Origin: a virus
IMG/VR virus record: IMGVR_UViG_3300012943_000029
Location: 92,922 to 156,921 of that record
DNA length: 64,000 nucleotides
Direction: 5' to 3' (one strand)
Below the pieces are notes generated by a model that had not been told where the DNA came from, made no database searches, and saw nothing but the letters and a program-made list of their open reading frames with translations. Positions 3,250-55,983 of the stretch are shown in pieces. Made by a program: the position numbers and the translations under genes. Within the stretch, counting starts at the first letter, position 1; every line of letters starts with the position of its first letter.

Positions 3250-3354
3250 ATGAAGTCCCTTGTGTGGTGGTTAGTGCCAGTCACCGGGTACAATCATCCG
3301 TGAGAGTGGGTCATTCTCCTTTTTGAAGTTGAGCGTGAGGTTACGAACAAGCGC

Positions 3355-3750
3355 TTAGTCTTGCTTCTTGAGAACCAGCTTGACCCACTCGATCGCTGAA
3401 AGCTGTGGGTTGCAAGCATATGGATTTGCCTCGAAGTTTGCTGGACGCTGGAGCTCAGCGAGCAGCCAAGTTGAAACTTGAACTGAGACCTCAGGGGTGA
3501 ACGCCTTTACCTGCTCAATGAGCTCGGCATTCGTCGACATGCTGTATGGAGCAAGCTCGCGTGGCCAGCTGTATGGACCACCGTTTCTGAACATCTCAAT
3601 GAGAGCGGCAACGATGAAGTACTGGACGTTGTTCGTAACGCCACCATCGCGGACTACCTGTTCGAGGGTCATGGTGATGTGGACTGGGATCACGCCTTCC
3701 TTGAGGTCGACTGAACCGGCTACGACTGTCTTGATTTCGTTAAGTCTCAT
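3355..3750 (-). CDS. Late hypothetical protein, possible internal head protein (MRLNEI leader)
   Basis: ORF with RBS and a perfect TATAAATA box 34 nt upstream. Confidence 0.6.
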   Translation of the reverse strand: MRLNEIKTVVAGSVDLKEGVIPVHITMTLEQVVRDGGVTNNVQYFIVAALIEMFRNGGPYSWPRELAPYSMSTNAELIEQVKAFTPEVSVQVSTWLLAELQRPANFEANPYACNPQLSAIEWVKLVLKKQD

Positions 3751-3783
3751 GGTATGTCCTTTGTGCCCTGTAGGCTCTCAAAG

Positions 3784-3815
3784 TATTTATACGTGCCGCC
3801 TGGCAGGCATAAATA
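3784..3815. promoter_or_regulatory. Back-to-back late promoters
   Basis: TATAAATA on minus strand (3784-3791) and ATAAATA on plus strand (3809-3815) between divergent genes. Confidence 0.75.
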
Positions 3816-3843
3816 CCAGGGCACGACATCACCAGGAACATCA

Positions 3844-4266
3844 ATGAAGCTCTCACAACTCAAGCGCCTCAACGAGGCTATCACAGGTTCAACCGTAGAA
3901 GCTGCTGATCTTAAGGACAAGAGGTTTGTCGACAAGCTAGCAAACGAGCTGCATGACAATGGCTTTCCAGATACCTTCAAGCTGGACGTCAAGCTGTCAA
4001 ACGGCCATGTGCTACCGACCACGTGGAAGCTTACGAACAAGTCGATCAACGACAGCCCAACTTGGCACCAACTAACGTTCGCCTACGAACCAGATCATGA
4101 GAGCAGCACGCGCAAGTTTGATTACCTACGCCACGCCGAGAAGGATGACAACGATCCTGAAGGTGAGACATACGATGAGCTTCAGCACGACCTCAACTTC
4201 GACATGCTCGAGGTAATGGCCGAACTCAGATCAGATATTGAGAAGGTGTATGGACACCTCACCTAA
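3844..4266 (+). CDS. Late hypothetical protein with MKLSQLKRLNE leader
   Basis: ATG at 3844 after AGGA RBS and late box; leader ends in L-N-E. Confidence 0.65.
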   Translation: MKLSQLKRLNEAITGSTVEAADLKDKRFVDKLANELHDNGFPDTFKLDVKLSNGHVLPTTWKLTNKSINDSPTWHQLTFAYEPDHESSTRKFDYLRHAEKDDNDPEGETYDELQHDLNFDMLEVMAELRSDIEKVYGHLT

Positions 4267-4495
4267 GGCTGAAGATGCCAAGATCGCGCCGCGCACAGAG
4301 TGGGCGAAGCTGTCTGTTACTCAGCTGTATGACAACCGCAACAAGCTGATGGACCTCTACTACAACATGCGTGGGGCAGGTGCCACATTCGCTGAGCAGT
4401 ACAAGAAGATCATCAGCGACCTTGATATCCTGATCCGTCGGCGTGAGGCTGAGCAGCTAACTGAGCAGCTTGCCGAGCAGGAAACTAATCGATAG
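4250..4495 (+). CDS. Hypothetical helical protein
   Basis: Overlaps previous stop region; likely start MDTSPK after AAGGTG RBS. Confidence 0.55.
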   Translation: MDTSPKAEDAKIAPRTEWAKLSVTQLYDNRNKLMDLYYNMRGAGATFAEQYKKIISDLDILIRRREAEQLTEQLAEQETNR

Positions 4496-4995: not shown

Positions 4996-5787
4996 TCATG
5001 TCCATAGGTACTTTCTAATCGCAAGCACACGCTGAAGCATGCGCTCACACATGATGTCGTGTTCGTCTTCAATCTCACGAAGCTCATTCCACGTGATGAG
5101 CTTCTCCTTACCATTCGGTACCATCTTCAGCTCGTTGCCGGTGAACACGTACTTCTCACCGGTCTTCTCATATAGTTTCCAATGATCAATGTCGTACTTC
5201 TCATCCTTGTACCACTCGTACAGACGGAATACTTCAACGTTCTTGCGGTAGTAGATGTTGGCGGTCTTTTCAAGCTCGCACAGCTCGTCAACGCTCATGC
5301 CCTCGTAGGGTGGTTTCAGAAGCTCGAGGCGGGCCTGCTCGATGAACTGTGTCATTGCAGGGCGGTCAGTGTAGCGCTTGCCGCTCCACTTGGTTTCCCA
5401 GTCCTTGAACGGCTGCTCGAGCTCGACAAAGTCTACGAGAATTTGGAACATGGCGTGGAACATGATAGCATCACGATCAGACCACGTTCGAGGGAGGGCG
5501 TGAAGCGTGAGGCGGTTGTGCGGCTTGAAGTAGCAGCGCACGTCGTAGATGGCGCTGTGGAAGTGGTTGTTGAGAGCGCGAGCGCGCCTGATGGTGCTTT
5601 TTACGAGCGCACGGATCGACTGCTTGCTAAAGCCGAACTTGACTTTTGTTTCGACCGTAAAAAGGGTAGGGTTCACGTTCAGTCTCCGGTGCTGCCATTC
5701 GCCGGCACGTGTATTTAGCCGAGACAGCCGATGCGCCGGCCAGAGCCCGACACAAACCCACCGCCGAGAGGCGGTGGAACAGGTCAA
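4996..5787 (-). CDS. Hypothetical phage protein (true start probably near 5675)
   Basis: Long ORF ending in RKYLWT; TAAATA box at 5712-5717 suggests a downstream start. Confidence 0.55.
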   Translation of the reverse strand: MTCSTASRRWVCVGLWPAHRLSRLNTRAGEWQHRRLNVNPTLFTVETKVKFGFSKQSIRALVKSTIRRARALNNHFHSAIYDVRCYFKPHNRLTLHALPRTWSDRDAIMFHAMFQILVDFVELEQPFKDWETKWSGKRYTDRPAMTQFIEQARLELLKPPYEGMSVDELCELEKTANIYYRKNVEVFRLYEWYKDEKYDIDHWKLYEKTGEKYVFTGNELKMVPNGKEKLITWNELREIEDEHDIMCERMLQRVLAIRKYLWT

Positions 5788-5800
5788 CGAGAGATTGAAC

Positions 5801-6241
5801 TTAGGTCAAAGTCAGGAGAGGCTTTGGGCCAAAGAAAATCCAGGAGATGCGAGCGGCTTTCCAGCCCGCGTAGATGGTAAGCACGTGGAAGATGATCAGT
5901 GGGATCGAGGTGAACTTGACCATCAAGAGGTACCACAGCTTGGCGAAATACCAGGCTCCCTCAAACGGAACCAACAGCATCTGCCACAGCTCTCGACCCT
6001 CCAGCTGCAGGCCATTGAGCTGGACAACTGCATCACCGAACGAGTACCAGTAGGTCTCGTCGACGTAGAAGAACATCACGAGGCAGCCCATGATTGCGGC
6101 GAAGGTAAGGAATGCCGGCGTGAGGATGGTCCAGATAGCGAGCAGCCTGGCAGCTGGCGCGCTTGCGAAGATGCGATAGAAGAGGTACAACGCGTAGCAC
6201 GTGACAATCGCGTAGGTAATACCGACAACCATAACAAACAC
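5801..6241 (-). CDS. Membrane protein
   Basis: Several hydrophobic segments; downstream of a TTAACATAA-class promoter. Confidence 0.6.
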   Translation of the reverse strand: MFVMVVGITYAIVTCYALYLFYRIFASAPAARLLAIWTILTPAFLTFAAIMGCLVMFFYVDETYWYSFGDAVVQLNGLQLEGRELWQMLLVPFEGAWYFAKLWYLLMVKFTSIPLIIFHVLTIYAGWKAARISWIFFGPKPLLTLT

Positions 6242-6266
6242 CCTTGTCCAACCTATCCTAGGAAGG

Positions 6267-6313
6267 ATTGTAAGCCAGTCCTAGGAAGAAGTACACAGGT
6301 CAAGTTATGTTAA
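6267..6313 (-). promoter_or_regulatory. Sigma70-like promoter with upstream TTAACATAA box
   Basis: Minus strand TTAACATAA-N9-TGTACT-N17-TACAAT. Confidence 0.65.
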
Positions 6314-6318
6314 ATGGG

Positions 6319-7110
6319 TCAGCGGAAGATGACCTTGAGCTTCTTGAGCTTGAACAACTTCGGTGCTACCTTAGGCGCCTTCACCTCAGCAGCTTCCTTG
6401 ACGCGCTTCCTTGGTGTCGGTGCCACGTCAACAGACTTGAGCAGGCTTCCACCAAGATCCTCAACGACGCTTGAGACGATCTGCTTCACCATCTCCTCGC
6501 GAGTTTGCATGTTGATCTGCACCTTAGGGGTGGGCGCTGGCGCTGGTGCTGCGGTCTTTGCAGCTGCCTTAGGCGCTGGAGCCGCATCATCTTCTGGCTT
6601 GCTGTCGGCAGCCTTATCATCTGCCGCCTGAGTTGTTGCGGCGTTGCTGTCAGCAGCCTTCGTGTCTGCCGCCTTTGCATCAGCAGCCTTCGTGTCTGCA
6701 GCGGTGCTGTCGGCTGGCTTGCTATCAGCAGCCTTCGTATCGGCAGGCTTTGATGTGGCGGCGACTGCCTCGGCGGTTGGAGCTGGTTCAGGCTGTGCGA
6801 CAGGTTCTGGGGCTGGCGTAACAACAGCCTCAGGCAGCGGCTCAATGGTTGCGGCTGACTTGAACGGTGTGAAGATGCGGTTGTTGACGATGACGTGAAT
6901 GCCAAGCTTCACCTCACCCGCGCCAAACACAGCACCAGGGTTGTCGACGCGAGCTACCCAGTCTTCACCGTTTCTGGTGGCTGCGTAGCTAAGCGAGCGT
7001 CCGTCCTTCTCTAGGACGAGCGCGACAGATGATGGCACGGCCTGGGTACCAGCAATTCCCACCTTGAAGGCGAGCTCAACTGGATTAGAATGTGGGAATG
7101 AGAGTAGCAT
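6319..7110 (-). CDS. Hypothetical virion-module protein with low-complexity linker
   Basis: Globular N-terminus, Ala/Pro/Lys-rich linker with pentapeptide repeats, basic C-terminus. Confidence 0.65.
   Translation of the reverse strand: MLLSFPHSNPVELAFKVGIAGTQAVPSSVALVLEKDGRSLSYAATRNGEDWVARVDNPGAVFGAGEVKLGIHVIVNNRIFTPFKSAATIEPLPEAVVTPAPEPVAQPEPAPTAEAVAATSKPADTKAADSKPADSTAADTKAADAKAADTKAADSNAATTQAADDKAADSKPEDDAAPAPKAAAKTAAPAPAPTPKVQINMQTREEMVKQIVSSVVEDLGGSLLKSVDVAPTPRKRVKEAAEVKAPKVAPKLFKLKKLKVIFR
6586..6750 (-). repeat. Degenerate 15-bp tandem repeat encoding about 11 K(A/P)AD(S/T) pentapeptides
   Basis: KPADT KAADS KPADS TAADT KAADA KAADT KAADS NAATT QAADD KAADS KPEDD. Confidence 0.8.
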
Positions 7111-7754
7111 TAACTGCGTCGAACCTCAAAGTAGACCTCAAAATCTTTGCAGCGGTACAGCATGTTCGGGGTGACCTTACCATGCTTCTTCAGCAGCGCC
7201 TCGAAGTTGGCATAGTTCACCTCATAGTTAGGATCCGCCTGCAGTGCGTCCCTAATCAGCTCAATGCACGTCAGCTTGTTGTCCTTGGCAAAGTCAAACA
7301 GCGTGTCGTACTTACGGCCAACATATGTCCTTGACTTGTCCATCACCTGCGTCCATTGTTCAATGGTGAAGGTGCGCGGCTTAAGCAGCGCGACTGAGCT
7401 TACGTTCTTGAACACCAAGTTGAATGGGTCGTATGAGACGCCACGCTTAGGCGTCGCCTCAACAAGACGAAAGTCATCATCGGACATAACCTCGTCTTCC
7501 AGGTTCATAAGACAGTGGGCGTAAAATCCAAACCTGCCAGTCATGACCAGGTCGGTAAGGCCAACAAACCACGCCGAAAGAAGGTTACTCGAGCGAGTGC
7601 AGATCAAGTAGTAATCCTTGGCCAGCATGTCCTTGATGTTCTCGAGCTCTTCCCCAGAAAGCGGGTCCCTCTGCTTCCATCTAACGCAGCTAATCAGTCT
7701 GACCACCAAGGTCGGCAACCAGCCAAGGTACTTCCTGAAGAAGGACTTGACCAT
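7110..7754 (-). CDS. YiiX-like permuted NlpC/P60 papain-fold amidase
   Basis: His (YAH) precedes Cys (GRKYD..F....LTCIELI), the permuted order; TAAATA at 7790-7795. Confidence 0.7.
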   Translation of the reverse strand: MVKSFFRKYLGWLPTLVVRLISCVRWKQRDPLSGEELENIKDMLAKDYYLICTRSSNLLSAWFVGLTDLVMTGRFGFYAHCLMNLEDEVMSDDDFRLVEATPKRGVSYDPFNLVFKNVSSVALLKPRTFTIEQWTQVMDKSRTYVGRKYDTLFDFAKDNKLTCIELIRDALQADPNYEVNYANFEALLKKHGKVTPNMLYRCKDFEVYFEVRRS

Positions 7755-7760
7755 GTGGGC

Positions 7761-8135
7761 TTACCTCTTAATGAGCCGAACGTCAGAGATATTTACAGTT
7801 TCTAGGATTGAATTGGCGATCTTCAGGCCATGGACTGTGATGAGCGGTACCATGGTCTCGTCACCACGCTCCAGCGTATGAAGATAGGTCTGGCCATTGA
7901 ACTCGATGGTGACCGCGATCGCCGGCATCTCCAGCGTGCTGACATCAACCGTATCATCCTCAACCTGACGACGGAAGATGCCGAGGTTCTCATAGTTAGC
8001 ATTGACCTTCTGCTGCTGCCCACCACCAACTGCGGTTGGGATGAACGGTGGCAGGGTCGAGATAATAGCCGCACGACGATACGAGCAGATGTCATCGATC
8101 TGCGAGCAGTTGATTGTGCAGGCGTTGATGGACAT
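7761..8135 (-). CDS. Hypothetical protein in virion module
   Basis: Tightly packed ORF in the fibre operon. Confidence 0.55.
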   Translation of the reverse strand: MSINACTINCSQIDDICSYRRAAIISTLPPFIPTAVGGGQQQKVNANYENLGIFRRQVEDDTVDVSTLEMPAIAVTIEFNGQTYLHTLERGDETMVPLITVHGLKIANSILETVNISDVRLIKR

Positions 8136-8752
8136 TAGCTCTGCTCTACATCAGTCCAAGTGACAGCATTTACATCGGCCACAGATGTCATAGCGAGAAC
8201 AGCATCCTTAACACCGTTGAAGGTGACGAGCACCTGCAGCTTGAACGCTGCGCCGTCATCTAGCACCTGACGAAGCTGGGTGTACGTGTGTGGAAGATAT
8301 GCTTTCACACCAGTGCTTGGATCACGTGAAGCGTAGTACATCGACGTACCTTCAGGATTTGCCACAGATGGTGATGTCGCTAGAATGGAACCGAGCATGT
8401 TGGCCTGGTCTTCTAGCTCGGCATCATAGCGCCGCGATGAACCGATCGCATCAGAGATAACACCTGACGTGATGTTATTTCCGGCAGCCACGCTAAGCTC
8501 AGTAATTTTGGCAACCTTAGCTTCCGTCAGCAGGCTAGCATCGGCGTCCATCTCTTCAGGTGTCATAATGCGAACGTTGTTCTCACCATAGAAGACCCAA
8601 AAGCGTGGGCTTACAAGCTGCGCGGCCTCGAAGTCATCAAACACTGGGTCAATGACGAATTCTTCTGGGCTCTCCAGCGTCTCGATATCCTCGACGCTGT
8701 TCCAGGTGTGCTTTGTTTTGTGGAAGATTACTGACATCTTACATCTTCTCAA
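8135..8752 (-). CDS. Tail fibre assembly protein, DUF4376-like
   Basis: AKVAKITEL...RYDAELEDQANM...HT..QL..V motif; directly downstream of a fibre gene. Confidence 0.65.
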   Translation of the reverse strand: MRRCKMSVIFHKTKHTWNSVEDIETLESPEEFVIDPVFDDFEAAQLVSPRFWVFYGENNVRIMTPEEMDADASLLTEAKVAKITELSVAAGNNITSGVISDAIGSSRRYDAELEDQANMLGSILATSPSVANPEGTSMYYASRDPSTGVKAYLPHTYTQLRQVLDDGAAFKLQVLVTFNGVKDAVLAMTSVADVNAVTWTDVEQS

Positions 8753-11700
8753 TGATGTGGAAGTTCGTTACCCACGTGGTGCCTGTTCCGCTAAATGAAA
8801 CTGCTATCGTGAGCGTCTGCGCTGCACCACTATTTACAGCCGCCGTACCGTTGACTATGGCGAAGGCGTTAATTGAAGCCGTGTTAAGATCACCAGCCGT
8901 ACCCACCGTTACGTTGCCGGTGCCACCAATGCGCACGGTGCCATTCAATATTTGCGCGTTGGCAGAATTGTTCGATGCGAGAATCAGGTCGAGGTCCCAT
9001 GCACCATCGGAGTTTCCGGCCTGGTTCGCTGTAGTATCTGACCACAGCGTAGTGCCACCGTATGAAACAGTGATCGTAACGCTTCTCGCACTGCCAGTTG
9101 TTCTCGCAAATGTTCCACAGGTCCTGATGTGTAGCAAATTCGTTGTTCCAAGCGTACCACCTGGGACTGAATATGAAAGGACGTTACCAGCCGCGTTGGT
9201 CAACGTAGTTGGTATTACGGATTTGGTAATGACGCCAACACGCTGAGCCCAAGCTCCACCACCAACATAATCTTCTGGTGAGCCGATGCTGCTGTTATAG
9301 CGCTCCATACCAACTACCGCGGTTGGGCGCTGAGCAGTTGTGCCACTTGGAATGCGGAGGAACTGTGTGTCCAGCTCCATGATTGGGGCGTTGGCAGTGA
9401 TTAGGGCGCCGGCATCGGTATTAGCGCCGACATACCATGAAAAGCCTGATGCAGCACCAGCCGTTCTGGCAGCATATGTGCCACGCGCGCCGAATACTGA
9501 AACATACAGCGGGTTCGCGTATGTGCCAGTACCAATCGTGTTGAACGTAATATACGGCGCATCATCATCTGCGTCGGTGAGACGTAGGTATGGGGTGCTG
9601 CCGTCATATGCGTATGAAATATATCCTGATGTTCCCGGCACACCAGAATTGAAGTACACTAGCTGTGCGTCTTGGTCTGTATTGCCGGTTTCAATGTACA
9701 TCGTGGCCGGCCCAGCGAGATACTGTGCTGCAAGCCCTGGTGCCGTGTAAGCTGGGCCAACGCGCATCTGGTTCGTAGCTGAAGTGCCAGTAACTGATAC
9801 GTATGGGTTTGCACCAGTAACAAAGTTGAAGTTGTTGCTGCCACCGAGAACGCCGTTGTTATTCCACTGAACGTTCGTATTGGCTCCAGCTGGGACGACA
9901 TTGAGCGTTACTGCACCTGTTGCACCAGAAACCGAGATATTGCTGCCAGCAACCGCGCTTGTTACGCCAGTGTTGGTAATCGTTGGGTTACCAGCAATGC
10001 CATCGCCGTTGCTGATTGAAATTGCCGTGCCTGCTGTAATCGTGCGAACTGTCCACGTGTCAGTTGCTGTGCGGACTGCCATGCCGTTTGCAGCAAGAGC
10101 CTCAACGGCGGCGAGGTCGTTAGCGAGGGCGAGAGTTGGGTTGCCTGCAACACCGTTACCATTCGTGACGGTGATACCCGCAGCTGGACCCGTGAGGGTG
10201 CGACCAGTGAAGGTATCTGCGGCCGTCTGCGTCAAAAGACCGTTGGTGTTAAATGCAGCAAGTGATGTTAGCGTAGCATCGAGCGGCTGCTTACCAGCAA
10301 GATCTGTTACGAGATTCGTGACTGCGCTTTCCGGAATGCCGGTGAAGTTAGCTTCAACGATCGTCAGCGTTGGGTTACCCGAAACGCCATCACCGTTGGC
10401 GACGGTGATCTTGGAGTTGGCTGAGACGATTGAGCGCTGTACCCATGTGTCTGATGCAGAGCGAACTGCGATACCAGTCGAGGCGAGAGCTTCAAGAGCG
10501 GCAAGGTCATTCGCGAGAGCAAATGTTGGTGTGCCCGTAGAAGTTATTGGAGTACCCGATCCAGTGATGGTCAAACCAGCTGCTGGCTGAGTAAGAGTGA
10601 TAGACGTGACAGTGCCACCGCCACCAGTTGCCGAGATCGTTGGATTGCCAGATACACCGTCGCCATTGCTGATGGAGATACCTGCACCGGCTGTAAGTGT
10701 TCTGTTGACAAATGTGCCTGCTGCAGTCTTCACAACAACACCGTTGCCAAGTGCAGCGAGGTTTACAATGAGCGTATTCTGCGTAGCCGTCGTGTGATAG
10801 TATTCGTCAGTCGTACCACCCTGCAAACCACCAAGTTCATTGTGAGAAGTAACAGATCCACCGGTGAACACCACATTGAACGCGCTCTGAACTTCCGTGA
10901 AGTCAGCATCGCTCTTCTTAATGATGATGCGGCCGATCAATGAGGCAGTAAGCAGTGGGTTTGGTGGGGTCGTTGGCGGTTGTGAGGCGGTTGTCGTGTC
11001 CAGGTTCGTGCTGTTCGTTATGCCATACACAACGTGGATCTGCCCGTCAGTTGACAGATAAACCCAATGCGAGCCATATGCCTTGTTGCTGAGCGCGACT
11101 AATCCAGACGATGGATCGTTGTACTGTGTATTGTCGATCTGCGTCTGTGACGCAGCAGAAGCCCATGTTGTCGGCGCAGTGCGATACCAGTACGTGAACG
11201 TATCAGAGCCGCTGGTATCCTTGGCCGTCAACGTGTAGCGGTCAATGCCTTCCCAAAATGCGCCAGCGCTGATAGCAAAGTTGCGAGTGCCAGTTGCCGA
11301 AAGGATTGCGCCGCTCTCACGCTCGAACCCTTGAACCGACTCGAAACGATTGATAATGCCGGCGAGCGAGTTGTCAAGCTTGAGGCGCGTGTAGTTGTTA
11401 AGCGTTAGCACCGTGCCAGCACGGTACACCTGCCCGATGATGACGTGGTCGACAGCGAAATTAGGTGTCGTCGTAGCTATTACAGTTGGCGAGCCGCCGT
11501 TGTAATCAACGAAGATGTAGTTCAGCGCGTTGTTCGTCAGCGCAAGTGATGGAACAGCTGCGAAGTCAAAGAAGTAAAGATGGCTGAGCGTGTTGTCTGT
11601 CGCGTGGATTTGACCGGTGCCACCAGTAACTGCAAGCGTACCATCACCGTTGTCAGTGAACGTGCCGCCACTGAAGGTGCCACGCGAACCGATGATGTCG

Positions 11701-17056: not shown

Positions 17057-17548
17057 TTACTGTTCAAAAATCCAGAGGTGATGGTTCACTGTTGGAAAGT
17101 TATCGAATACCGCATCAATGATATCTGATATGACGGCCCAGCTGCCATTGCCTAGCCCAGCACCGATGAGCGGGTAGTGCACGTCAAGCTTGAGATTGTC
17201 AGCAAGCACGGCGACTTGAAAGAAACTGCTGTGAACAGCCTTGTAGCTGACGTACTGCTTCGTCTGGTCCTTACCAAAATTTTCCTGTGTGATTGCGTTT
17301 ACGACCCACAGCTCAGGCCCCTTCAACAGCGAGTTGCTGCCGACGCGCTGCGGTGCGATCTCACCAAGCACTGGTTCGCCAAGTGAACGGCGATGGCGAC
17401 AAAAGTCGGCGTACGTTTGAAAAGCGGCTGGGTATTTTTCCTTGATGGACTTTGCTACACCGCTACCCATCACGCCCTGCGCGTTGCAGCCATGAACGAT
17501 AAGCCCCTCCTGAACGGAGAGCAGATCACCAAATCTAACCCGCTTCAT
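17057..17548 (-). CDS. Macro-domain (ADP-ribose binding/hydrolase) protein
   Basis: GDL..., IVHGCNAQGVMGSGVA..I...YP, PLIGAGLGNGSW motifs. Confidence 0.88.
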   Translation of the reverse strand: MKRVRFGDLLSVQEGLIVHGCNAQGVMGSGVAKSIKEKYPAAFQTYADFCRHRRSLGEPVLGEIAPQRVGSNSLLKGPELWVVNAITQENFGKDQTKQYVSYKAVHSSFFQVAVLADNLKLDVHYPLIGAGLGNGSWAVISDIIDAVFDNFPTVNHHLWIFEQ

Positions 17549-17948
17549 ATGCCTTCCTTGAAGTACCAGCCAGCTCCTTGGCCTCAAGAAGTTTCTTGTT
17601 AGCGTACCCATTGATGATGGTGATTGACAAGAGCTGCTTGCTCGCAGATGATGGCAGCGCCATGTTCTCGTTCACCACGTAGCGGGTCAGCACATCGATG
17701 ATAGGCTCTTCATTGAGAACGACGGTTCCAAATGGGACTGTGCCACGGCCAACCGTATCGCGCAGCGCCTTGACGGCCTGCTTGGCTGAGAATTCTACTT
17801 CCTCTGGGCAGATGTAAACCCAAAAGTCGTATGTTCGTTCCGACTGCGGTCTAAGCAGGAACGATATGCCACCGCGTGAATGGACCGCTAGGCGATGCGC
17901 CCGTCGATCATACCACTGTGGTCTAACGTGTCGAAATATCTCACTCAT
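17535..17948 (-). CDS. Hypothetical protein
   Basis: Coupled ORF in operon. Confidence 0.55.
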   Translation of the reverse strand: MSEIFRHVRPQWYDRRAHRLAVHSRGGISFLLRPQSERTYDFWVYICPEEVEFSAKQAVKALRDTVGRGTVPFGTVVLNEEPIIDVLTRYVVNENMALPSSASKQLLSITIINGYANKKLLEAKELAGTSRKAYEAG

Positions 17949-44320: not shown

Positions 44321-44746
44321 TCAACCTGCTGCGGACATTTCCTTCAGTCGATTGATGCCGATGGCGACCGACTTCTTGGCGGATGCGATGTGGTCGGCCT
44401 GAGCGAGGTCATTCTTTGAGAGCCAATCAAGGAAGAGAACAAGGTCTACGCCGTGGAGCCGCATCTTGTCAACATCATTCCATGGGTGTCCATCACCGGC
44501 GCTTCCGATCTGAACGAGGAACTGCTTCACCCACTTCAGGGTGAACTTGAAGATGTTGTTGGTGATCTCAGGGTTTGTCCTTGCGAGCTCTTTGAACTCG
44601 GCCGCGCCGCCGCGAAGGCGGTCAGCGAGCTCATCGAAGCGCCACAGCGCATGCTCATCAACGCTAGCTAGAAAATTTGTCCAGCGTGCCAGGTTGGTGA
44701 CCTCGGTGCTCGATAGCTCTTCATTAATGAGTTCAGCGATCTTCAC
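44321..44746 (-). CDS. Putative internal head protein (family member, KFTLxW domain)
   Basis: MKIAELINE leader; IFKFTLKWVK...FLDWL...AKKSV. Confidence 0.7.
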   Translation of the reverse strand: MKIAELINEELSSTEVTNLARWTNFLASVDEHALWRFDELADRLRGGAAEFKELARTNPEITNNIFKFTLKWVKQFLVQIGSAGDGHPWNDVDKMRLHGVDLVLFLDWLSKNDLAQADHIASAKKSVAIGINRLKEMSAAG

Positions 44747-44747
44747 T

Positions 44748-45254
44748 TCAATCCTTCAAGTGCGGGTGCTTCTCGAGGTGCGCGTTAAGATCTGCAACTG
44801 CTCGCGCATGATCTGCTGTAGCATTTGCCAGCGCCTCTCGCGCATTGCTGACGCGACCTTGTAGGTGCTGCTTGTGATCGGCTGGTGTGTAGGTGCTCTT
44901 CTGAATTACTTTCAGCTCAGCCTTTGTTGGAGCAAGATTTTCTGGCAGCTCATCAACAATGACGCTGTCGAGGATATCGCTGAACGCATTCTTCTGCGCA
45001 GGTGTATCGGCTATGTCCTTGATCGCCAGCATGATGACGCGCATAACATCCTGCTTGGTCAGCCCGTGCTCTACAGCTAAAGAGAGCTCGTTGCGAAGAT
45101 CTGTCTGAGCATCTTCCATCTCGTCAAACAACGTATCACCATCACCAGCGCCAGTGTCATGGTCAACTGTTGCTGCTATGCAGTTCTCGATGGCATCGAG
45201 GATCTTGTCCTCGCTGAAGCCCTTCTCATTCTCTAGAAGCTCTTTGATATTCAT
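44748..45254 (-). CDS. Putative internal head protein (family member)
   Basis: MNIKELLE leader; L.KQDVMR.I...IK motif; TAAATA at 45286-45291. Confidence 0.65.
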   Translation of the reverse strand: MNIKELLENEKGFSEDKILDAIENCIAATVDHDTGAGDGDTLFDEMEDAQTDLRNELSLAVEHGLTKQDVMRVIMLAIKDIADTPAQKNAFSDILDSVIVDELPENLAPTKAELKVIQKSTYTPADHKQHLQGRVSNAREALANATADHARAVADLNAHLEKHPHLKD

Positions 45255-45850: not shown

Positions 45851-45857
45851 ATAAATA
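45851..45857 (+). promoter_or_regulatory. Late promoter (ATAAATA)
   Basis: Upstream of clpS and the two large family genes. Confidence 0.7.
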
Positions 45858-45880: not shown

Positions 45881-46261
45881 ATGACGACACAATTTCCTCT
45901 CCTCGAAGAGATCGTTGACATCGAAAAGAAGTCGAAGGTCAGCGATGCCCCTGTTGAGAAGCCACCAGGCTGGAACGTCGTCATCCTCAATGATGACACA
46001 ACCCCTGCCGAGGTAGTCGTCGAGGCCATCGTCGACAGCACCGATCTGACACCGCACCAGGCGATCGAGCGCATGATGACGGCGCATAGCGGCGGTTGGG
46101 CGGTCATCAAGTCATATCACTCAGCCGACGTTGCTGAGCAGGTGGCGCACAACATCCAGGTGCACGCCGAGAACAACACCAAGTACGATCACTACAAAGA
46201 GCACCTCGGCCACAAGGGCCCGTGGCCGCTGACGACCGACATTCAGGAAATTAGCAAGTGA
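45881..46261 (+). CDS. clpS: ClpS N-degron adaptor
   Basis: P..WNVVILNDDTTP.E.VV...A...M..AH..G.AV. Confidence 0.88.
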   Translation: MTTQFPLLEEIVDIEKKSKVSDAPVEKPPGWNVVILNDDTTPAEVVVEAIVDSTDLTPHQAIERMMTAHSGGWAVIKSYHSADVAEQVAHNIQVHAENNTKYDHYKEHLGHKGPWPLTTDIQEISK

Positions 46262-47028
46262 AATTTAGCGAGCTCCTTGAAGCGCGTGAGGTTGTTGCTC
46301 CTGACAGCGGTCAGGCAAAGTTCGCTGAGCTGAAGAAGGCGCTTCTCGCTGGCCTACCCGACAGCGTAAAGACTAAGGGCGTTGTTAAAAGCTTTGACCT
46401 TGGTGGCCTGACATTCAAATTCTCATGGGGTAATGAGGACGGCCACCCGTACTTCTGCTACCAGTCGAATGACCCTCGTGGCTTCGCCATCATCATCAAG
46501 TTTCACAGGGATGGAAAGAAGCTGACGCCAATGACGGCCGACGTAAGTTGGAGCGGTCAGGTGAAGCGCCCTGGTTATGACGACAGCTTTGTTGACCGCA
46601 ACTTTGAACGCACAATCAATCTCCACCCTGCCGCCGACAAGCACGCTGACGGTATCAAGCTGACGGCAAAGGACCTTGCTGGCGACGTATCAACGGATGA
46701 TGAGGGTATTTTGGCCGCCATTGAGAGCGAGACAGACAACAACGCAGAGTACAGTGTCGTGCTCGGTGACATAGTGAAGAAGCTGCGCAAGCTGAAGGAT
46801 CTAAACAAAGAGCGCCTTGAAGGGCCGCTCATGCGCGCCACGCTGCAGACGCTGAAGACAATGCTGACCGACAACGACGGCTACACTCGCGGTGAGGGTG
46901 CCTTCATTATTAAGTGGATCAACACGCTGCGCCATCTTGGCTACAACTATCCAGCGCTGGAGGGCGTTGAGAGAAAGTTGCACGCTGAGGCTGTTAAGCA
47001 CCTCAAGCATGATGAGACGATCAAGTGA
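46258..47028 (+). CDS. Putative internal head protein, two-domain, paralog of 55309-55983
   Basis: MKFSELLE leader; FH..GKKL.PM.A and LHPA..KH..G..LT; C-terminal W...L..LGY.YP.L..VE.KL. Confidence 0.7.
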   Translation: MKFSELLEAREVVAPDSGQAKFAELKKALLAGLPDSVKTKGVVKSFDLGGLTFKFSWGNEDGHPYFCYQSNDPRGFAIIIKFHRDGKKLTPMTADVSWSGQVKRPGYDDSFVDRNFERTINLHPAADKHADGIKLTAKDLAGDVSTDDEGILAAIESETDNNAEYSVVLGDIVKKLRKLKDLNKERLEGPLMRATLQTLKTMLTDNDGYTRGEGAFIIKWINTLRHLGYNYPALEGVERKLHAEAVKHLKHDETIK

Positions 47029-48968
47029 AAGTTCATGACCTACTTGAGAACGTGGCGCTTGGTGATATCGACGATGAGCTCGTCGACTACATGTGGCGGC
47101 GCGGTGATCACCTCAACAATGTTTTCTATGAGCTGCGTCGGCACAAGCTGAACCGCCGTGAGGTGCTCGTCTTCCTGCGCGATGTAATCAAGCGCTTCAC
47201 ATCACCAACAAAGCGCTTCAATCTCCGCCTCTATGCGATGGTAGTTGCCGCGCACCATGAGCTGGGCTCCAGCGGTCCAACTGAGGAAGACCTCAACACC
47301 TTCAAGCAGCAGCTTCTACCTAAGGTGGATGAGGCGGTGAAGACACCGAACTGGAAGGTCAGGGTCGATCACGTAGTCGACAATGGCAATCATGCCCACA
47401 CCACAGTGCTTGAGCTGCTCTACGCCATCAATGCGTGGCGCAAGCGCCCAGACTTCAACAAGGAATGGGCCACGAAGCAGCTCATGAAGTACACCCTCAA
47501 CTGGTTGAAGTCGATGCACGAGGTGGAGCCACGACTTAGCCAGTCGATTGGGTTCCCAGACAAGTGGGCCACAGCATCGCTCAACAAGCTGCTCGGCAAG
47601 CTGACGCAGCTTGGTGTCCCAGCAACCCAGGTCGATGGCATTCGCAAGAGCTTCAACTCGCTGGGCAAGCTGAAGTCAACCAAGATCAACGAGATCATTG
47701 GCACCGCCACGGCCGACGCGGCCATCGAGAGGGACCTGAACGCTGAGCTTGGTCACTTCGTCTACAATGGGGGTGCACACCCGCCAACTAGCGAGATCAT
47801 CGAGATCATCAACAGGAACCAGCTGCCAAAATCATTCGTCATGCGCTGGCTGCTGAAGGCAGTGCAGCACTACGCTGGCGCCAACAGCACGGTTCGCGGT
47901 AGGCTACGAAACCTCGCGTACACCATTGTCTACCACACCAATGTTGGACCAACTAGAGATGAGTTCGAGACGATCGCCAAGAGCCTGTCCGCGGTAGGTG
48001 AGAGCGCTGGCGATGGGGCAATCAGCCTAGAGAAGCTCCTCAACGCCGAGCTTGGGCACATCCTCCACTCTCAGAAGGGGAAGGCATCTGACGCGCTCAT
48101 CGACATCATCTCTCAGAGCGGAATGGACCGCCAGGCCGTCATGCGCTGGTTCCTTGGCCATGTCAAGAGCCAGGGTGGTCGCTTCAACCTTGTTGACGAG
48201 CGCCTCTTCGGTCTTGCCGGCGATCTTAGAAACCTGACCCGCGTCGGTCCTAACAAAGAAGAGCTCAACGCTATTGAGAAGAGCCTGCTGAAGAGGGGCG
48301 TCAGCGAGGCGAATGAAGAGCAGTACACCGCGTCAGACCTAGAGGACGAGCTTGACAGCTACCTCTTTGACGACAAGGACACCTACCTCAGCACCCACAT
48401 AAAGTACAGCCAGCTCAGCCGTGAAGAGGTGATGCACGCCCTCCTCAACTCGGTTAAGAAGGTGCATCAGCTCGGTGGTCGCAATGAGTTCAGGTACGTC
48501 AGCGGCCGCCTCAGTGGCCTGTGCTCGTTCCTAGCCCGCGAGCTGAAGGACAAGGGACCGACGGCGGCTGAGATCAGCGCCATCAAAAGAAGCCTTGATA
48601 ACGTCAACAAGTTCGTCAATGAGGAGAATGTGAATTGGGAAGGCCACCTTAGCCTTCAGTTGAAGATCCCACACAAGTCGTCAAACGATTTCCAGCGCAC
48701 CGCTTACATGGTTCATGTGGCAGAAGCAGATCACCCAGAGCTAGACCTCGTCAACAAGTTCAAGGACGAGCTCATGAAGTTTACGCTCAGCTGGCACAGG
48801 TACATCGCCAGCAATGAGCACCTCATCGACATAGCCCCTAATGCCCTGCCAGCACACTACTACCGCGAATGGCTGAACTTCCTCGATCAGCGCGGCTGGC
48901 CAGAGGTGAAGCACCTCAAGGCATCATTCGCTGACCTCGCCAGGCAGTTCACACCGAAAGAAGACTGA
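47025..48968 (+). CDS. Six-domain putative internal-head polyprotein (647 aa)
   Basis: MKVHDLLE leader; four GP(T/N)..E...I.KSL repeats and two MK(Y/F)TL.W domains separated by [VI]-x-E linkers. Confidence 0.75.
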   Translation: MKVHDLLENVALGDIDDELVDYMWRRGDHLNNVFYELRRHKLNRREVLVFLRDVIKRFTSPTKRFNLRLYAMVVAAHHELGSSGPTEEDLNTFKQQLLPKVDEAVKTPNWKVRVDHVVDNGNHAHTTVLELLYAINAWRKRPDFNKEWATKQLMKYTLNWLKSMHEVEPRLSQSIGFPDKWATASLNKLLGKLTQLGVPATQVDGIRKSFNSLGKLKSTKINEIIGTATADAAIERDLNAELGHFVYNGGAHPPTSEIIEIINRNQLPKSFVMRWLLKAVQHYAGANSTVRGRLRNLAYTIVYHTNVGPTRDEFETIAKSLSAVGESAGDGAISLEKLLNAELGHILHSQKGKASDALIDIISQSGMDRQAVMRWFLGHVKSQGGRFNLVDERLFGLAGDLRNLTRVGPNKEELNAIEKSLLKRGVSEANEEQYTASDLEDELDSYLFDDKDTYLSTHIKYSQLSREEVMHALLNSVKKVHQLGGRNEFRYVSGRLSGLCSFLARELKDKGPTAAEISAIKRSLDNVNKFVNEENVNWEGHLSLQLKIPHKSSNDFQRTAYMVHVAEADHPELDLVNKFKDELMKFTLSWHRYIASNEHLIDIAPNALPAHYYREWLNFLDQRGWPEVKHLKASFADLARQFTPKED

Positions 48969-49030
48969 TAGGTCACCGTAGATTGCGCATGTGATAGAAT
49001 AGCTCAGGTCCCACAACCTGAGAACCGTCC

Positions 49031-50691
49031 ATGAACCCATCTCTTGCCTACCTCGCCAGTGCCTTCGAGCGCATGGAACAGGTAGATGTACTCGCTGCTC
49101 CAGGCTTCCGCTTCATGAAGGCGCTGCGCACCAAGCTGCTCAGCAAGGTTGGCTGCACCTTATCTGAGCAGGCCATCGATGAGATCATCGCCAACATGAC
49201 GATCGAGCTTGGTAACCCTGGTAGCGATGGCGATGATGACGAGTTCATCGATCGCGTGTCCACGTCAATGACCAACCTCATTGTGAAGCTCCACGATGGC
49301 TACAAGGCCGTTGGCTTCATTGATCCCGACAAGGCGCTCATCACGCTGGCCAGGCAGCTCTCAATCAAGGTGGGCTAGCATGAAGCCGATCCATATTCGC
49401 CGGCTGCGCAGCGTTATCACCGCCCTGAGGGAAGCGCCCAACCCGCTCGCCTTCGACATGGGCCAGTACGTCTATGATGGTGATGATGGCTTTGACTGTG
49501 GCACGCCAGCCTGCGCTCTAGGCCACTACGCCGCGCGCACAGACCTACAAAAGACCTTCAAGATCAGGGCGAACGCGCAGCACCAGGTTGCCGACATCAT
49601 GGCTGATGAGCAAACCATTCAAGCACCATCAGAAGAGCCGGCGGTTCAAGAGCACTTCGGCATGACCTCTGAGGAGGTTGAAGATATTTTCGGAGCTGAG
49701 GGCTGCGGTGGTGCCAAGACCACGAAGGCCGCCATAAGGTACATCGAGAGGTTCATCGCCAAGAGGGTGTCTGATGCCCGCGCGATCGTCAACGAGTTCG
49801 ACACATGAAGAAGTTCCTTGCCATCGCCATGCTCCTGACCGGCTGCGCCGATCCGAACCACGTTGCGCCAAAGCCACCGACCAAGGAAGAGCACCTTGCT
49901 GCCAAGATCTACTACCTCAAGGACAAGGTTGGACTGTGTTACGCCGCCATTGACAGTCTGTCCTCGAACAGCTACGTGATTACCTCCATCACCGAGGTGG
50001 ACTGCGAGAAGGTCGGGCTATGAACCTCGACGACTACAGCTTCACGCCAACCGCCAAGCTCTACGATCGCTGGACAAATGATCGCGAGGCCCTCATCAAG
50101 GACATCAGCGAGAAGAGCGGCATCACCAAGGAGCAGGCGACGGCGTTCATCTGCGCCCTCATTCAACCAGAAGGTGGCAGCGCATGAACCTACGAGACGC
50201 CAAGCGGCTGGCCGGCTACAACAAGACCAAGCTGAAGCGCTTCCTCGGTCGCGACCATGATTGGTATGACTTCGATCGGATCGGCGACATCGACATTCAC
50301 CAGAACCGCGTTGAGTACACCCTGTTGCGGGATGAGGGGCACGCTACCGCGCTCGCCACCGTCTCCCTGTACCTCGTGACAATCGGTAAGCGGCTGCAGG
50401 TCTGCGCCACGATGGATGACATGGACCACCCAGCGTTCGGAAGATAGCATGACCGCGCAGTCCACCTGGATCCCTCATGACCCGCCCATGAAGGTTGGCG
50501 ATCAAGCCAGGATCCTCTGCGACTGGCACCCAAACAACGGACAGGTTGGCACGATCACAGCCATCCTCGATCACACTCAGTCGAGGTGGTGCCGCACCGA
50601 CCGCTGGAGGTCTGACTGGTACGTGCTGCACATCGATGGCGCCGACCCTGAGCGGCTTGGCTTCCTTGAGGATGAGCTGCAGCCATGCTGA
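49031..50691 (+). other. Plus-strand cluster of small genes behind a GTGATAGAAT promoter (about 48991-49000), including lipoprotein 49805-50023
   Basis: Coupled ORFs 49031-49378, 49380-49808, 49805-50023 (LLTGC lipobox), 50184-50447, 50448-50691. Confidence 0.6.
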
Positions 50692-51077
50692 CCCGTCAGG
50701 AGTTCATCGACAACGCCATTGCTAGAATAGAGATGGCCGCAGGCCTTCGACCAGATGATTGCGTCTTCATGAGCGATGGCTCCCTGCTCGACACCTACGT
50801 CAGGGCAAATGGGTACGCCAATGAAATGTTCTACGAGCACCTACCCACCCTTCGCTACGCTGGTCCAACACCGACGCTGGCCGACCCGTTCCCGCTGATC
50901 AATGAAGTGAAGCCAGCCCTGCTGAAGTTCACCCTCAGCTGGCTGCGCGCAACCGTCGCCCAGCCGCGCGAGGCAAGGTTGGAACCTAAGATCGGCATCA
51001 TCGAATGGCTGGACGCGCTTGCCTTCACAGGCTGGCCCGAGCTGCCGACGATCCGCGCAACCGCCATCACCGCCTAA
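50685..51077 (+). CDS. KFTLxW-domain family member lacking the leader
   Basis: LLKFTLSWLR...EWLDAL...GWPEL..IR. Confidence 0.7.
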   Translation: MLTRQEFIDNAIARIEMAAGLRPDDCVFMSDGSLLDTYVRANGYANEMFYEHLPTLRYAGPTPTLADPFPLINEVKPALLKFTLSWLRATVAQPREARLEPKIGIIEWLDALAFTGWPELPTIRATAITA

Positions 51078-51783: not shown

Positions 51784-52062
51784 GTGAACCTCGAAGCGCA
51801 CCTGACAACGTACCTGCATACCAGCGCGGTGTTCTCCCCCACCCAGCACATTCGCCGGGCAATACAGGACGCTCACTACGACCATGACACCCTTATTCGC
51901 TGGCTGCTAGAGCAGATCAGGGATAGGTACGACCAAGGTGAAACTATCCGCAACAGGCTTGCCAAGCTGGCAGGCGCCCTTCACCGCGAGCTACCTGGCA
52001 CCGGCCCAACCAAGGAAGAGCTGACAGCAATACTGAAGTGCCTCCGCTCACAGCACGCCTAA
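51784..52062 (+). CDS. GPT-type domain family member lacking a clear leader
   Basis: LIRWLL.QI...RL..LA..L...GPTKEEL.AI.K.L matches repeats in the 647-aa protein. Confidence 0.7.
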   Translation: MNLEAHLTTYLHTSAVFSPTQHIRRAIQDAHYDHDTLIRWLLEQIRDRYDQGETIRNRLAKLAGALHRELPGTGPTKEELTAILKCLRSQHA

Positions 52063-52070
52063 ATAGGTGC

Positions 52071-52427
52071 ATGAAACTAGCCGACCTTCATGAAAGCACT
52101 ACCTCAAGATGGGAACCTGTCGTCAGGGAACTTACCGATCCTCGGCACCCTGTTGGGCTGAACCTAGACCAGCTTATCTACGCTGTTCGCCAGTGGCGTA
52201 AAGAAAAAGACTACGATGCAACCAAAGCCAAGCCGATGGTTCATGGGTTTGTTCTGCGCTGGCTGAGGTCGCTACTTGAAAGATTTGAGAACACGCAGAT
52301 ACATTACCATCTTGCCCACACCCTTGAATACCTGAAGGGTTGGTTGAATGAGCTCAACCTTGATGAAGCTGAAGTGAACCTGATGGTGCGCTACATAGAC
52401 AAGCTGCTCGCCTACAGAGAATACTAA
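52071..52427 (+). CDS. Putative internal head protein (family member)
   Basis: MKLADLHE leader; LIYAVRQWRK.KDY resembles domain 2 of the polyprotein (LLYAINAWRKRPDF); TAAATA at 52060-52065. Confidence 0.7.
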   Translation: MKLADLHESTTSRWEPVVRELTDPRHPVGLNLDQLIYAVRQWRKEKDYDATKAKPMVHGFVLRWLRSLLERFENTQIHYHLAHTLEYLKGWLNELNLDEAEVNLMVRYIDKLLAYREY

Positions 52428-52439
52428 AAGGATCAGCAG

Positions 52440-53270
52440 ATGAAGGTTCACCAGCTCCTAGAAACACATGCTAACATCCTGAGTTGGCTGGACCAACCGG
52501 TCAGGCGTAACCTAGGCATCTTCGGCTTCGCTGACCATGCAAAGCGTATCTATGATGGTGATATGGGTAGCGAGATAGCCAGTAACCTGACCATCCCTGA
52601 GGTGAGGACCGCCCTCATCAAGTTCACCGTTGCTTGGATGAAACAGTTCATTCAGCAGGCAGATGACGCCAAGAGGGGCAGTGACGCTCAGGCTATAGCA
52701 GATCCGGTCTACGCCACGATTAACAACGACAAGGTCGGTAAAATGATGATCGCCTTCCAGTGGCGAGAGAATAGAAAGAACATGCTCAAGCTCATTGCTT
52801 GGTTGCGTGATCACGGTGTAGATGATCCTGCATTTGACAGGGTAGCAGCCTTCACCAAGAAGTACTCAGTGCTTGAGGCTGCCAGTGCAGATCTACTAGC
52901 ACAGGTAGAGAAGGTGGTGGATCACGTCGTAGAGAACCCAGAGCATCGCGTCCTTGGCAGCAGTGGTCTTAATGTCTTCCCATGGCACGCCTATGGTGGG
53001 ATACCGAACCCTTCTGATCATGCACTCAAGAGCATCCTGATTGCGAACAAAGATCAACTCGCAGCCAACAGGTCAAAGCTTGAAGCACCAATCATGCGCT
53101 TCACTCTAGCCTGGCTGAAACACTACCTGACCCATGCTCCGATTATCCAGTACGGTACTGGCACCATCCGTCGATGGATAGAATTCCTACGCTCTAATGA
53201 TTTGGACTTCAGTGGGTTGCAGCATGTAGAGAAGAGCCTGCCACCAGAAGAGCCGCAAGAAGAAGAGTAG
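52440..53270 (+). CDS. Two-domain putative internal-head polyprotein
   Basis: MKVHQLLE leader; LIKFTVAWMK and IMRFTLAWLK domains separated by V-L-E; ends L.HVEKSL. Confidence 0.72.
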   Translation: MKVHQLLETHANILSWLDQPVRRNLGIFGFADHAKRIYDGDMGSEIASNLTIPEVRTALIKFTVAWMKQFIQQADDAKRGSDAQAIADPVYATINNDKVGKMMIAFQWRENRKNMLKLIAWLRDHGVDDPAFDRVAAFTKKYSVLEAASADLLAQVEKVVDHVVENPEHRVLGSSGLNVFPWHAYGGIPNPSDHALKSILIANKDQLAANRSKLEAPIMRFTLAWLKHYLTHAPIIQYGTGTIRRWIEFLRSNDLDFSGLQHVEKSLPPEEPQEEE

Positions 53271-54144: not shown

Positions 54145-54525
54145 TCAGCGAGCTGTGATGGACCTGCGGATTACGCTTAGCTCTTCCCACTCTTGAGGGA
54201 GGGTGTCCAACCATTCTTCAAGGTAGAAGGAACCGATGGGTTCGCCAGTGTGGAACCGTCTCAGCCACTGAAGGCTGAAGCGCAGCAGGTAGTCCTTCAC
54301 CCCATCAGTCTCATCGATAGCCTGAAGGGTCTGAACCCATGGGCGCAGGTTGTGGGCAGTGGTGTGGTAGCCACGGTTGGTCAGGTTGTTCTCATGCTCA
54401 CGACAGTAGCTGATCACCCTTGACCAGGTATGGTGCAGCGCCTCAAGCTGAGTGGCACCACGTGGCCATTTCGAGGGGATGGTGTAGATGCGGGGGTCCA
54501 GCGCAGGTTGTGTTCTTGAAACCAT
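54145..54525 (-). CDS. KFTLxW-domain family member lacking the leader
   Basis: LLRFSLQWLR...EEWLDTL..EW.EL..IRRSI; TATAAT 7 nt before ATG. Confidence 0.7.
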   Translation of the reverse strand: MVSRTQPALDPRIYTIPSKWPRGATQLEALHHTWSRVISYCREHENNLTNRGYHTTAHNLRPWVQTLQAIDETDGVKDYLLRFSLQWLRRFHTGEPIGSFYLEEWLDTLPQEWEELSVIRRSITAR

Positions 54526-55308: not shown

Positions 55309-55983
55309 ATGAAGGTCAAGCAGCTGCTCGAAGCCGTATCCCTCAGCCCTGAGTTCAAGGCTGACCTGAAGAACCTCAAGCTAACAGGTCAACTGCCCCC
55401 TGAGCGGCTCTTGATCGGTGGTCTGGTGTTCCAGCGTCGCACCCCTCTAACCAAGGACAACTACTCGGCCAACGGCGGGGTCGGCTATGAGTACAACTGC
55501 CTCACCGATGATGAGGTCTACCTGACCATCTACTTCCATCAGACACCAGGCGGTAAGCTCATCCCTATGTCGGCCAATTCTGGTATCTGGCACAGCTCTG
55601 AGGAGTACTCGGTCGACCTGCACCCAGCCGGTACCAAGCACTCAGCTGGCTACCATCTCACCGATGCGAACCTGAAGGGTGACATGACTGAGGACAGGGC
55701 TGTTGAGAAGTTGCTGAAGCAGCTTGAGCACGATGCGGTCATCTCTGATACGTTCAGCATCATGAGGGTACGGCACCTGTTGAAGGCGGCCGGCTATGAC
55801 CCACGGTTGGTGCGGCCCATCATTCACTGGCTGCTCAGGTTGGTGAAGAAGCTCCATACAGAGGAGTATGCAACGATGAGCATGTCAAGGGTAGATGACA
55901 TCGTGCAGACGGCAAAGGAGCTGGGGTACCCGAAGGCGGAGCTGGCTACCATTGAGAAGGCACTTGCCGCCGTGGGGAAGTGA
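55309..55983 (+). CDS. Putative internal head protein, paralog of 46258-47028
   Basis: MKVKQLLE leader; FH..GGKLIPMSA, LHPAGTKHSAG..LT; C-terminal IHWLL...LGYP..EL..IEK.L. Confidence 0.72.
   Translation: MKVKQLLEAVSLSPEFKADLKNLKLTGQLPPERLLIGGLVFQRRTPLTKDNYSANGGVGYEYNCLTDDEVYLTIYFHQTPGGKLIPMSANSGIWHSSEEYSVDLHPAGTKHSAGYHLTDANLKGDMTEDRAVEKLLKQLEHDAVISDTFSIMRVRHLLKAAGYDPRLVRPIIHWLLRLVKKLHTEEYATMSMSRVDDIVQTAKELGYPKAELATIEKALAAVGK

Follow-up and report, generated by a model that had tools for sequence, protein, structure and literature searches.

The gene under study lies in the last 64 kb (64,000 nucleotides, hereafter the window) of a 156,921-base IMG/VR contig (IMGVR_UViG_3300012943_000029). 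It is a plus-strand open reading frame (ORF) at 47025..48968, whose product, P0001, an earlier note had read from the letters as a polyprotein of six small domains processed by a phage protease. Coordinates refer to the window unless the contig is named. The source is a T4-type phage, and the CheckV completeness of the contig (~44%) implies a jumbo genome of roughly 350 kb. Its topoisomerase II is most similar (~49% identity) to the enzymes of the Ralstonia phage RsoM2USA and of two Xanthomonas phages, BUDD and X1, and the phage belongs to a T4-like lineage, with RsoM2USA, BUDD and XacN1 as its nearest phages.

The six-unit protein and its family

The ORF was confirmed to be open, to start with GTG and to encode 647 amino acids (aa); the GTG and the stop codon of the gene before it overlap as GTGA. 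Behind a short leader, M-K-V-H-D-L-L-E (47025..47048, plus strand; L-L-E at residues 6-8), come six helical units arranged as A-B-A-A-A-B (residues 9-103, 104-223, 224-326, 327-428, 429-533 and 534-647). The proposed division into six small units of ~100-120 aa held, most clearly for the A-type repeats. In unit-versus-unit BLASTP, 36% identity over 89 aa was observed between units 3 and 4 (E 4e-15), 41% over 66 aa between units 4 and 5 (E 4e-7) and 24% over 95 aa between units 1 and 5 (E 3e-5), and the B-type pair, units 2 and 6, was weaker (27% over 64 aa, E 0.016). Both motifs ascribed to the units, GP(T/N)..E...(I/F).(K/R/Q)(S/Q)L and LMK(Y/F)TL.W, were found in P0001. In a profile-profile comparison the A and B types aligned in register (VMRWLL..VK with LMKFTL.WLK, and GPT.EEL.AI.KSL with GWPE...I..S; P 6e-4), and thus all six units probably belong to one superfamily. 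DNA-level tandem repeats were sought within the ORF and none was found, so that the duplications must be old. We propose that family genes were duplicated and fused to give P0001.

Paralogs were searched for with hidden Markov models (HMMs) of the units, iterated over 2110 contig ORFs and the ORFs of related metagenomic contigs until the search converged on a closed set. All family paralogs of the window lie within 12 kb, in a cluster at 44.3-56 kb. The five free-standing paralogs already listed in the earlier note were all recovered: p141 (44321..44746, minus strand; leader MKIAELINE and a weak B-type domain), p130 (50685..51077, plus; a B-type domain with the N-terminus MLTRQEFIDN), p92 (51784..52062, plus; a single A-type domain without leader, ending 5 residues past the K-x-L motif), p118 (52071..52427, plus; leader MKLADLHE and a B-type domain) and p126 (54145..54525, minus; a B-type domain without leader). 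The HMMs added four more. These are p168 (44748..45254, minus; leader MNIKELLE and an A-type domain), p256 (46258..47028, plus; leader MKFSELLE, a C domain of unknown type and then a B domain), p276 (52440..53270, plus; leader MKVHQLLE and two B-type domains joined at S-V-L-E, Glu146) and p224 (55309..55983, plus; leader MKVKQLLE, a C-type domain and an A-type C-terminal half, ending AAVGK*). The C domain shared by p256 and p224 is ~120 aa long and non-helical-looking, with the motif GGL.F ... LHPA..KH..G..LT, and sits between the leader and the B or A domain; no match to it was found in Pfam, PHROGs, NCBIfam or the ESM Atlas, where a feature search with p256 likewise gave no usable match.

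Outside the contig, an exhaustive phmmer search over 1.84 billion representative proteins returned only two matches, P0002 (219 aa, A-B, leader MRVNELLE) and P0003 (91 aa, A-type, without leader), both from one set of Logan runs, SRR25375758-777. Two related contigs, L007 (2693-5527; SRR25375774) and L008 (1-4626; SRR25375777), carry strings of small genes in which single A and B genes, each with a leader of its own, stand in tandem; the A-B fusion P0002 is found among them, behind GTAAATACC. These tandem single genes look like the unfused state of the same family.

Other searches gave little. Apart from ClpS in a neighbouring gene, P0001 and its neighbours matched nothing in Pfam, PHROGs or NCBIfam, and a Pfam scan of P0001 at E <= 1 returned only a chance match (PF24408) and no PF12699 match. 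No match to P0001 or to P0006, a further protein of the window described below, was obtained by blastn and tblastn against 50,697 phage records. A word-indexed search of 5.8 billion proteins returned P0001 itself only, and the same search with the A-domain profile recovered known members only. A scan of IMG/VR turned up no relative, and nothing significant was found by a sequence profile search of the PDB.

Leader peptides, the head module and possible late expression

The leader pattern (M-K/R/N-x-x-x-L/I-L/I/H-E/N) opens P0001, P0002 and 10 paralogs, in one of which the leader ends in LINE. In addition to the leaders of the window given above, MKALELLE, MKLHQLLE, MRVVELLE, MKFNELLE and MRISDLLE occur together with that of P0002 on the related contigs. 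Proteins of five architectures carry the leader (A, B, C+B, C+A and B+B), and so do the A-B and A-B-A-A-A-B fusions. Its codons differ synonymously and the DNA upstream of the leaders is unrelated; selection therefore falls on the leader peptide. The eight residues are a candidate segment for capsid targeting and a candidate propeptide.

In T4, internal proteins are loaded by a 10-residue capsid-targeting sequence, MKTYQEFIAE, which is removed after Glu10 (PMC8442874); of its residues, those at positions 4 and 7 are important for targeting, those at 8 and 10 for processing (PMC9026906). The T-even internal proteins are diverse and have in common only this sequence (PMC3012670). The T4 prohead protease gp21 itself is blocked at its active site by its first nine residues (LIE-9), which are self-cleaved (PMC9958956, PMC9026906). 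Among 4282 candidate starts, the best two look-alikes of MKTYQEFIAE, with 6/10 matches each (~0.3 expected by chance), were the family member p130 (MLTRQEFIDN) and P0006 (MTTFKQFIAE). P0006 (73-504, minus strand; 143 aa) retains positions 7, 8 and 10 of the T4 sequence, with Phe replacing Tyr at position 4, and ends in GAVEKSLNASAR. It was not placed in the A/B family (HMM E 4.5) despite a K-S-L-like tail. The protein has a weak PPR-repeat match (TIGR00756, E 2e-5), and its gene lies directly downstream of a 606-aa gene with a ATAAATAC box.

The minus strand of the contig carries a head module in T4 order: the portal (contig 8853-10514), a gp21-type prohead protease of the Peptidase_S77 family (contig 8125-8739) and the major capsid protein (contig 3037-4311), together with four small charged proteins of 338, 224, 161 and 302 aa, also on the minus strand. 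The T4-type protease on which the polyprotein proposal relied is thus encoded by the phage, with a PF03420 match of 90.7 bits, above the cut-off, at contig 8257-8673 on the minus strand (Pfam E 7e-27) and a phrog_207 match (E 5e-56). The N-terminus of the protease, MKQQILIE, has the same pattern as the family leader, and that of the head-module protein p161 (161 aa, acidic tail, encoded between the protease and capsid protein genes) is MKLTDLHE. No informative homolog of p161 was found among isolates. The presence of a leader shared at the peptide level, and of the same pattern on the protease and p161, bears out this part of the earlier claim of a targeting leader; that the leader actually loads proteins into the capsid goes further, and we judge it somewhat more probable than the contrary.

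Other (L/I)-x-E sites cluster near the N-termini of three head-module proteins encoded between the protease and capsid protein genes (contig 5675-8122, minus strand): LVE6, IAE12 and LDE18 in p338, LNE4 and LTE19 in the 224-aa protein (distinct from the family member p224) and LHE8 in p161. The capsid protein has LFE18, LLE29, VLE44 and LQE52, all before its conserved core. All of these sites are candidate maturation sites for the phage's protease. Another Peptidase_S77-like match, a weak one that does not reach the cut-off (E 3e-5), was found ~9 kb from the protease gene in a 129-aa ORF (contig 17505-17894, minus strand), which may be a diverged or truncated protease paralog, as reported for SPN3US.

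P0001 is the last gene of a three-gene operon linked by GTGA overlaps. The first gene is ClpS-like (45881..46261, plus strand; PF02617, E 1.7e-14; alternative GTG start, 45869). The GTG that opens p256 overlaps the stop of this gene, and p256 is in turn translationally coupled to P0001. The N-terminus of the ClpS-like protein, MTTQFPLLEE, also contains L-L-E, and the operon thus joins an N-degron adaptor to proteins that are candidates for protease processing. At its head stands an ATAAATA box (GTCATAAATACCC; 45851..45857, plus strand), like a T4 late promoter, 23 nt upstream of the ClpS-like ATG. On the contig, (G/C)ATAAATA(C/T) occurs 24 times versus ~9.6 expected, and 22 of the occurrences lie 10-75 nt upstream of an ORF start; those in the window are at 2394, 3789, 3809, 14463, 16489, 19802 and 45851. 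The ATAAATAC box of the P0001 operon is also present before the protease gene, a baseplate-wedge gene and a tail-fibre-like gene, and the protease gene is preceded by the full T4 late box, TATAAATA. These positions are consistent with late expression of the P0001 operon from a candidate T4-type late promoter. TAAATAGGTG was rejected as a promoter, as it consists of a stop codon followed by a Shine-Dalgarno-like sequence, and sigma-70-like promoter matches in the locus were at chance level. Just past the P0001 stop, at 48990-49022, TGTGATAGAAT resembles an extended -10 element and is followed by a perfect 8-bp hairpin (CTCAGGTC..ACCTGAG) before the next gene at 49031, which suggests that the small genes downstream are transcribed as a unit of their own.

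Domain junctions and structure models

According to the earlier note, a (V/I/L)-x-E motif lies at every boundary, and the positions of the six Glu residues (8, 103, 223, 326, 428 and 533) proved exact. The five internal junctions of P0001, all on the plus strand, are V-D-E between units 1 and 2 (residues 101-103, 47325..47333), I-N-E between units 2 and 3 (residues 221-223, 47685..47693), V-G-E between units 3 and 4 (residues 324-326, 47994..48002), V-S-E between units 4 and 5 (residues 426-428, 48300..48308) and V-N-E between units 5 and 6 (residues 531-533, 48615..48623), the last of which is modelled at the end of the last A-domain helix, before a low-confidence linker. The total of such motifs in P0001 is 10, equal to chance (10.6 +/- 2.7 in shuffles); only 3 of the 10 have the T4-canonical Leu or Ile at P3, and each unit has 0-1 internal site. 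Their placement is another matter. Junction windows were set by family-conserved anchors, independently of the motif (five in P0001 and one in P0002, 92 residues in total). One (V/I)-x-E was found in each of the six windows, against 9 sites in the 754 residues elsewhere (~5-fold enrichment), and the joint P for this placement is 1.5e-5 on the assumption of independent junctions, which shared ancestry weakens. The placement of (V/I)-x-E at junctions is hence not due to chance, although the total count is what chance would give.

Conservation of the linker Glu in homologs, to which the earlier note had tied its proposal, was also observed: P0002 has VKE and the B-B paralog p276 has VLE146, so that the Glu is kept in all seven family junctions at 25-40% overall identity. 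V-x-E is absent from all five free-standing A domains; four of them reach 4-10 residues beyond K-S-L, and the fifth, p168, has a C-terminal extension of ~45 residues that also lacks it. In p118 the spacing from the leader Glu to the conserved Trp (LHE-STTSR-W) equals that at the junctions (VDE-AVKTPN-W, VNE-ENVN-W and VKE-SSG-W), which fits the idea that the junctions arose when tagged genes were fused.

An AlphaFold model of units 5-6, built on an 18-row family alignment, consists of two all-helical bundles (predicted local distance difference test score, pLDDT, 87; predicted template modelling score, pTM, 0.69). Confidence dips at fragment residues 101-110 (linker block pLDDT 67), and structural matches split at fragment 105/106, that is, P0001 533/534, which is exactly the boundary drawn in the earlier note. 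In this model units 5-6 look like separable helical bundles, in line with the expectation of separate domains, although a pTM of 0.69 is too low to establish independent folding; a single-sequence model of full-length P0001 was unusable (pLDDT 47). Fold searches with the two-domain model (Foldseek against PDB and BFVD, VIA-align and Atlas) returned generic helical-bundle or repeat matches only. The best of them, the Smaug PHAT domain, was rejected, since its Z of 10.2 is below the ~13 noise level stated for helical proteins. As modelled, the fold of the units has no relative among the searches made and gives no reading on function.

Proposed loading, possible cutting and relation to known systems

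Taken together, these observations lead us to lean, with some reservation, toward the view that the family, including P0001, represents internal proteins that are targeted to the capsid and lose their leader to the prohead protease. The leader, M-K-(V/I/F/L)-x-(E/D/Q)-L-(L/I/H)-E, would act like the T4 capsid-targeting sequence and dock the protein on the prohead core; the gp21-type protease would remove it after Glu8; and mature P0001 would stay in the head with the DNA, as one of a family of packaged and ejected capsid-internal proteins. Each junction would have kept or acquired (V/I)-x-E, and the same protease may cut there as well, giving six domains of 11-14 kDa. That P0001 is further cut at its junctions is a tentative suggestion. 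In that case it would be a homotypic polyprotein, in which one tag loads the chain, the protease cuts at (V/I)-x-E and six folded domains of 11-14 kDa are injected with the DNA; this possibility we hold to be doubtful. On the same tentative footing, the joints could be fossil cleavage sites of lost leaders, and P0001 a stoichiometric 'string of effectors' made from fused tagged genes. We infer loading and leader removal, and junction cutting more weakly. As for the arrangement put forward in the earlier note, with one leader and six released domains, the leader stood, as did the motif at the junctions and the gene for the protease, whereas release is weaker in view of Val at P3 and the position of the motif at a helix end.

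Several observations weigh against loading of the family into the head. The cluster sits among small unknown ORFs on both strands, outside any structural module, and three members (p92, p126 and P0003) have neither kind of leader. An ATAAATA box is also present before a cytidyltransferase-like gene and the thymidylate synthase gene (thyA), so that the box need not be specific to late or virion genes. In RsoM2USA, BUDD and XacN1, the closest isolates, the leader pattern occurs no more often than expected by chance. The predicted fragments of P0001 are not basic, unlike T4 IPII and IPIII: pI is 5.4-7.1 in four of them and 8.1 and 10.0 in the other two. Finally, the family is lineage-restricted and nearly unique in databases, so no relative with a virion proteome can vouch for it.

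The alternative that survives best, and which we regard as a possibility of real weight if still the less probable one, is that P0001 is a cytoplasmic, non-virion accessory protein, an uncut multi-domain product of gene fusion and tandem duplication, in a family expanded for host takeover or counter-defence. The shared N-terminus would then be a conserved first helix or an interaction peptide, possibly tied to the ClpS-like adaptor. Small unknown ORFs on both strands are the typical look of an accessory region, and L007 and L008 are alike in this respect. Members without a leader, a total number of (V/I/L)-x-E motifs equal to chance and an ATAAATA box before nucleotide-metabolism genes also speak for it, and no member matches virion families in PHROGs or Pfam. 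However, such a role leaves unexplained why the 8-residue L-x-E pattern occurs on the prohead protease and a head-module protein, why a family member is among the contig's two best look-alikes of the T4 targeting sequence and why a hydrophobic-x-Glu stands at every family domain junction. The leader also occurs on unrelated domain types (C+B and C+A), like a portable signal.

A second alternative concerns the junctions only: P0001 would be loaded, lose only its leader and stay a six-domain internal protein of ~73 kDa. The T4 system can load fusions up to the size of beta-galactosidase (PMC9026906). At five of seven junctions P3 is Val, while Leu or Ile is found in all leaders and head-module N-termini. 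The junction Val lies inside the terminal helix of the A domain, as the model helix runs through V-N-E, and p224 ends in AAVGK* where unit 3 has SAVGE, which makes the Val look like part of the domain. V-x-E could therefore be a helix-end feature inherited by duplication. Independent beads are not established at a pTM of 0.69, a value which suggests that A may be packed against B. On the other hand, the junction Glu is kept at all seven junctions at such low overall identity, and the free-standing A domains, most of which end within 10 residues of K-S-L, lack the motif. Moreover, gp21-family proteases vary at P3, with A-x-E in SPN3US and S/A/G-x-E in phiKZ (PMC5694885), and Val at this position is thus compatible with cutting. 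All in all, loss of the leader only appears unlikely to us.

That the family represents auxiliary scaffold or core parts, degraded and expelled at maturation instead of being delivered, is very improbable: T4 gp22, gp67 and gp68 do have multiple sites and are digested to peptides (PMC9958956), and N-terminal (L/I)-x-E sites are present in the head-module proteins of 161, 224 and 338 aa, but 0-1 internal motif per unit would leave folded 11-14 kDa products too large for the shell pores, the compact helical fold (pLDDT 87) is unlike the extended, highly charged scaffold proteins, and scaffold genes are normally single-copy and in the head module.

If the family is indeed loaded into the head, the closest known system is that of the internal proteins of T4 (IPI, IPII and IPIII) and Alt. 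Common to both are small, otherwise diverse proteins with a short leader that ends in hydrophobic-x-Glu, a gp21-type protease with the motif at its own N-terminus, and genes outside the head module, and two proteins of the contig match MKTYQEFIAE at 6/10 (PMC8442874, PMC3012670, PMC9026906). The leader described here has 8 residues (MKVxELLE), whereas the T4 propeptide has ~10-19 and ends in (L/I)-x-E. The members here are homologous, forming one superfamily of ~12 genes, and are not basic. P0001 has six domains with candidate internal sites, whereas T4 internal proteins are cut only once.

Paralog families of this kind are known from the heads of other large phages. In SPN3US they have up to 20 members, among which are processed paralogs whose N-termini are identical (PMC5694885). 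SPN3US gp53/gp54 and family B, as well as phiKZ gp93-95, resemble the present case in being large paralog families with conserved N-terminal propeptides that keep the protease motif despite divergence, and in having a gp21-related protease that cuts after Glu (PMC5694885). There is no sequence relation (no PF12699 and no PHROG match), the phage lineage here is T4-like, and P3 is L, I or V here and A, S or G there; processing in those phages is proteomically proven, whereas here only the genes are available. Polyvalent proteins (Iyer et al. 2017, PMC5512222) also combine many domains in one polypeptide, and for them, too, transport along with the DNA and proteolytic release have been proposed. 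They consist of unrelated enzymatic or anti-defence domains with embedded peptidases and anchors (MuF, portal), whereas P0001 has six copies of one helical superfamily. No enzyme, peptidase or anchor domain was found in P0001 with Pfam, PHROG and NCBIfam, which sets it apart from the polyvalent proteins, and any cutting would be in trans, by the prohead protease. The remark that one tag and six released domains would be unusual for phage cargo holds against the published literature searched.

If the leader works as a capsid address, the targeting principle of T4 would hold in a distant lineage of jumbo phages as well, there with a shorter and readily recognisable tag, and annotators could predict packaged and ejected proteins from the tag. 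It would also show how cargo families grow through local duplication and fusion of tagged genes. If the joints are cut, one tag with six released domains would be a mode of delivery absent from the phage literature searched, and tag and joint would be candidates for use as parts that load foreign proteins into the heads of phages. The domains, having no detectable relatives, are candidates for new host-directed activities.

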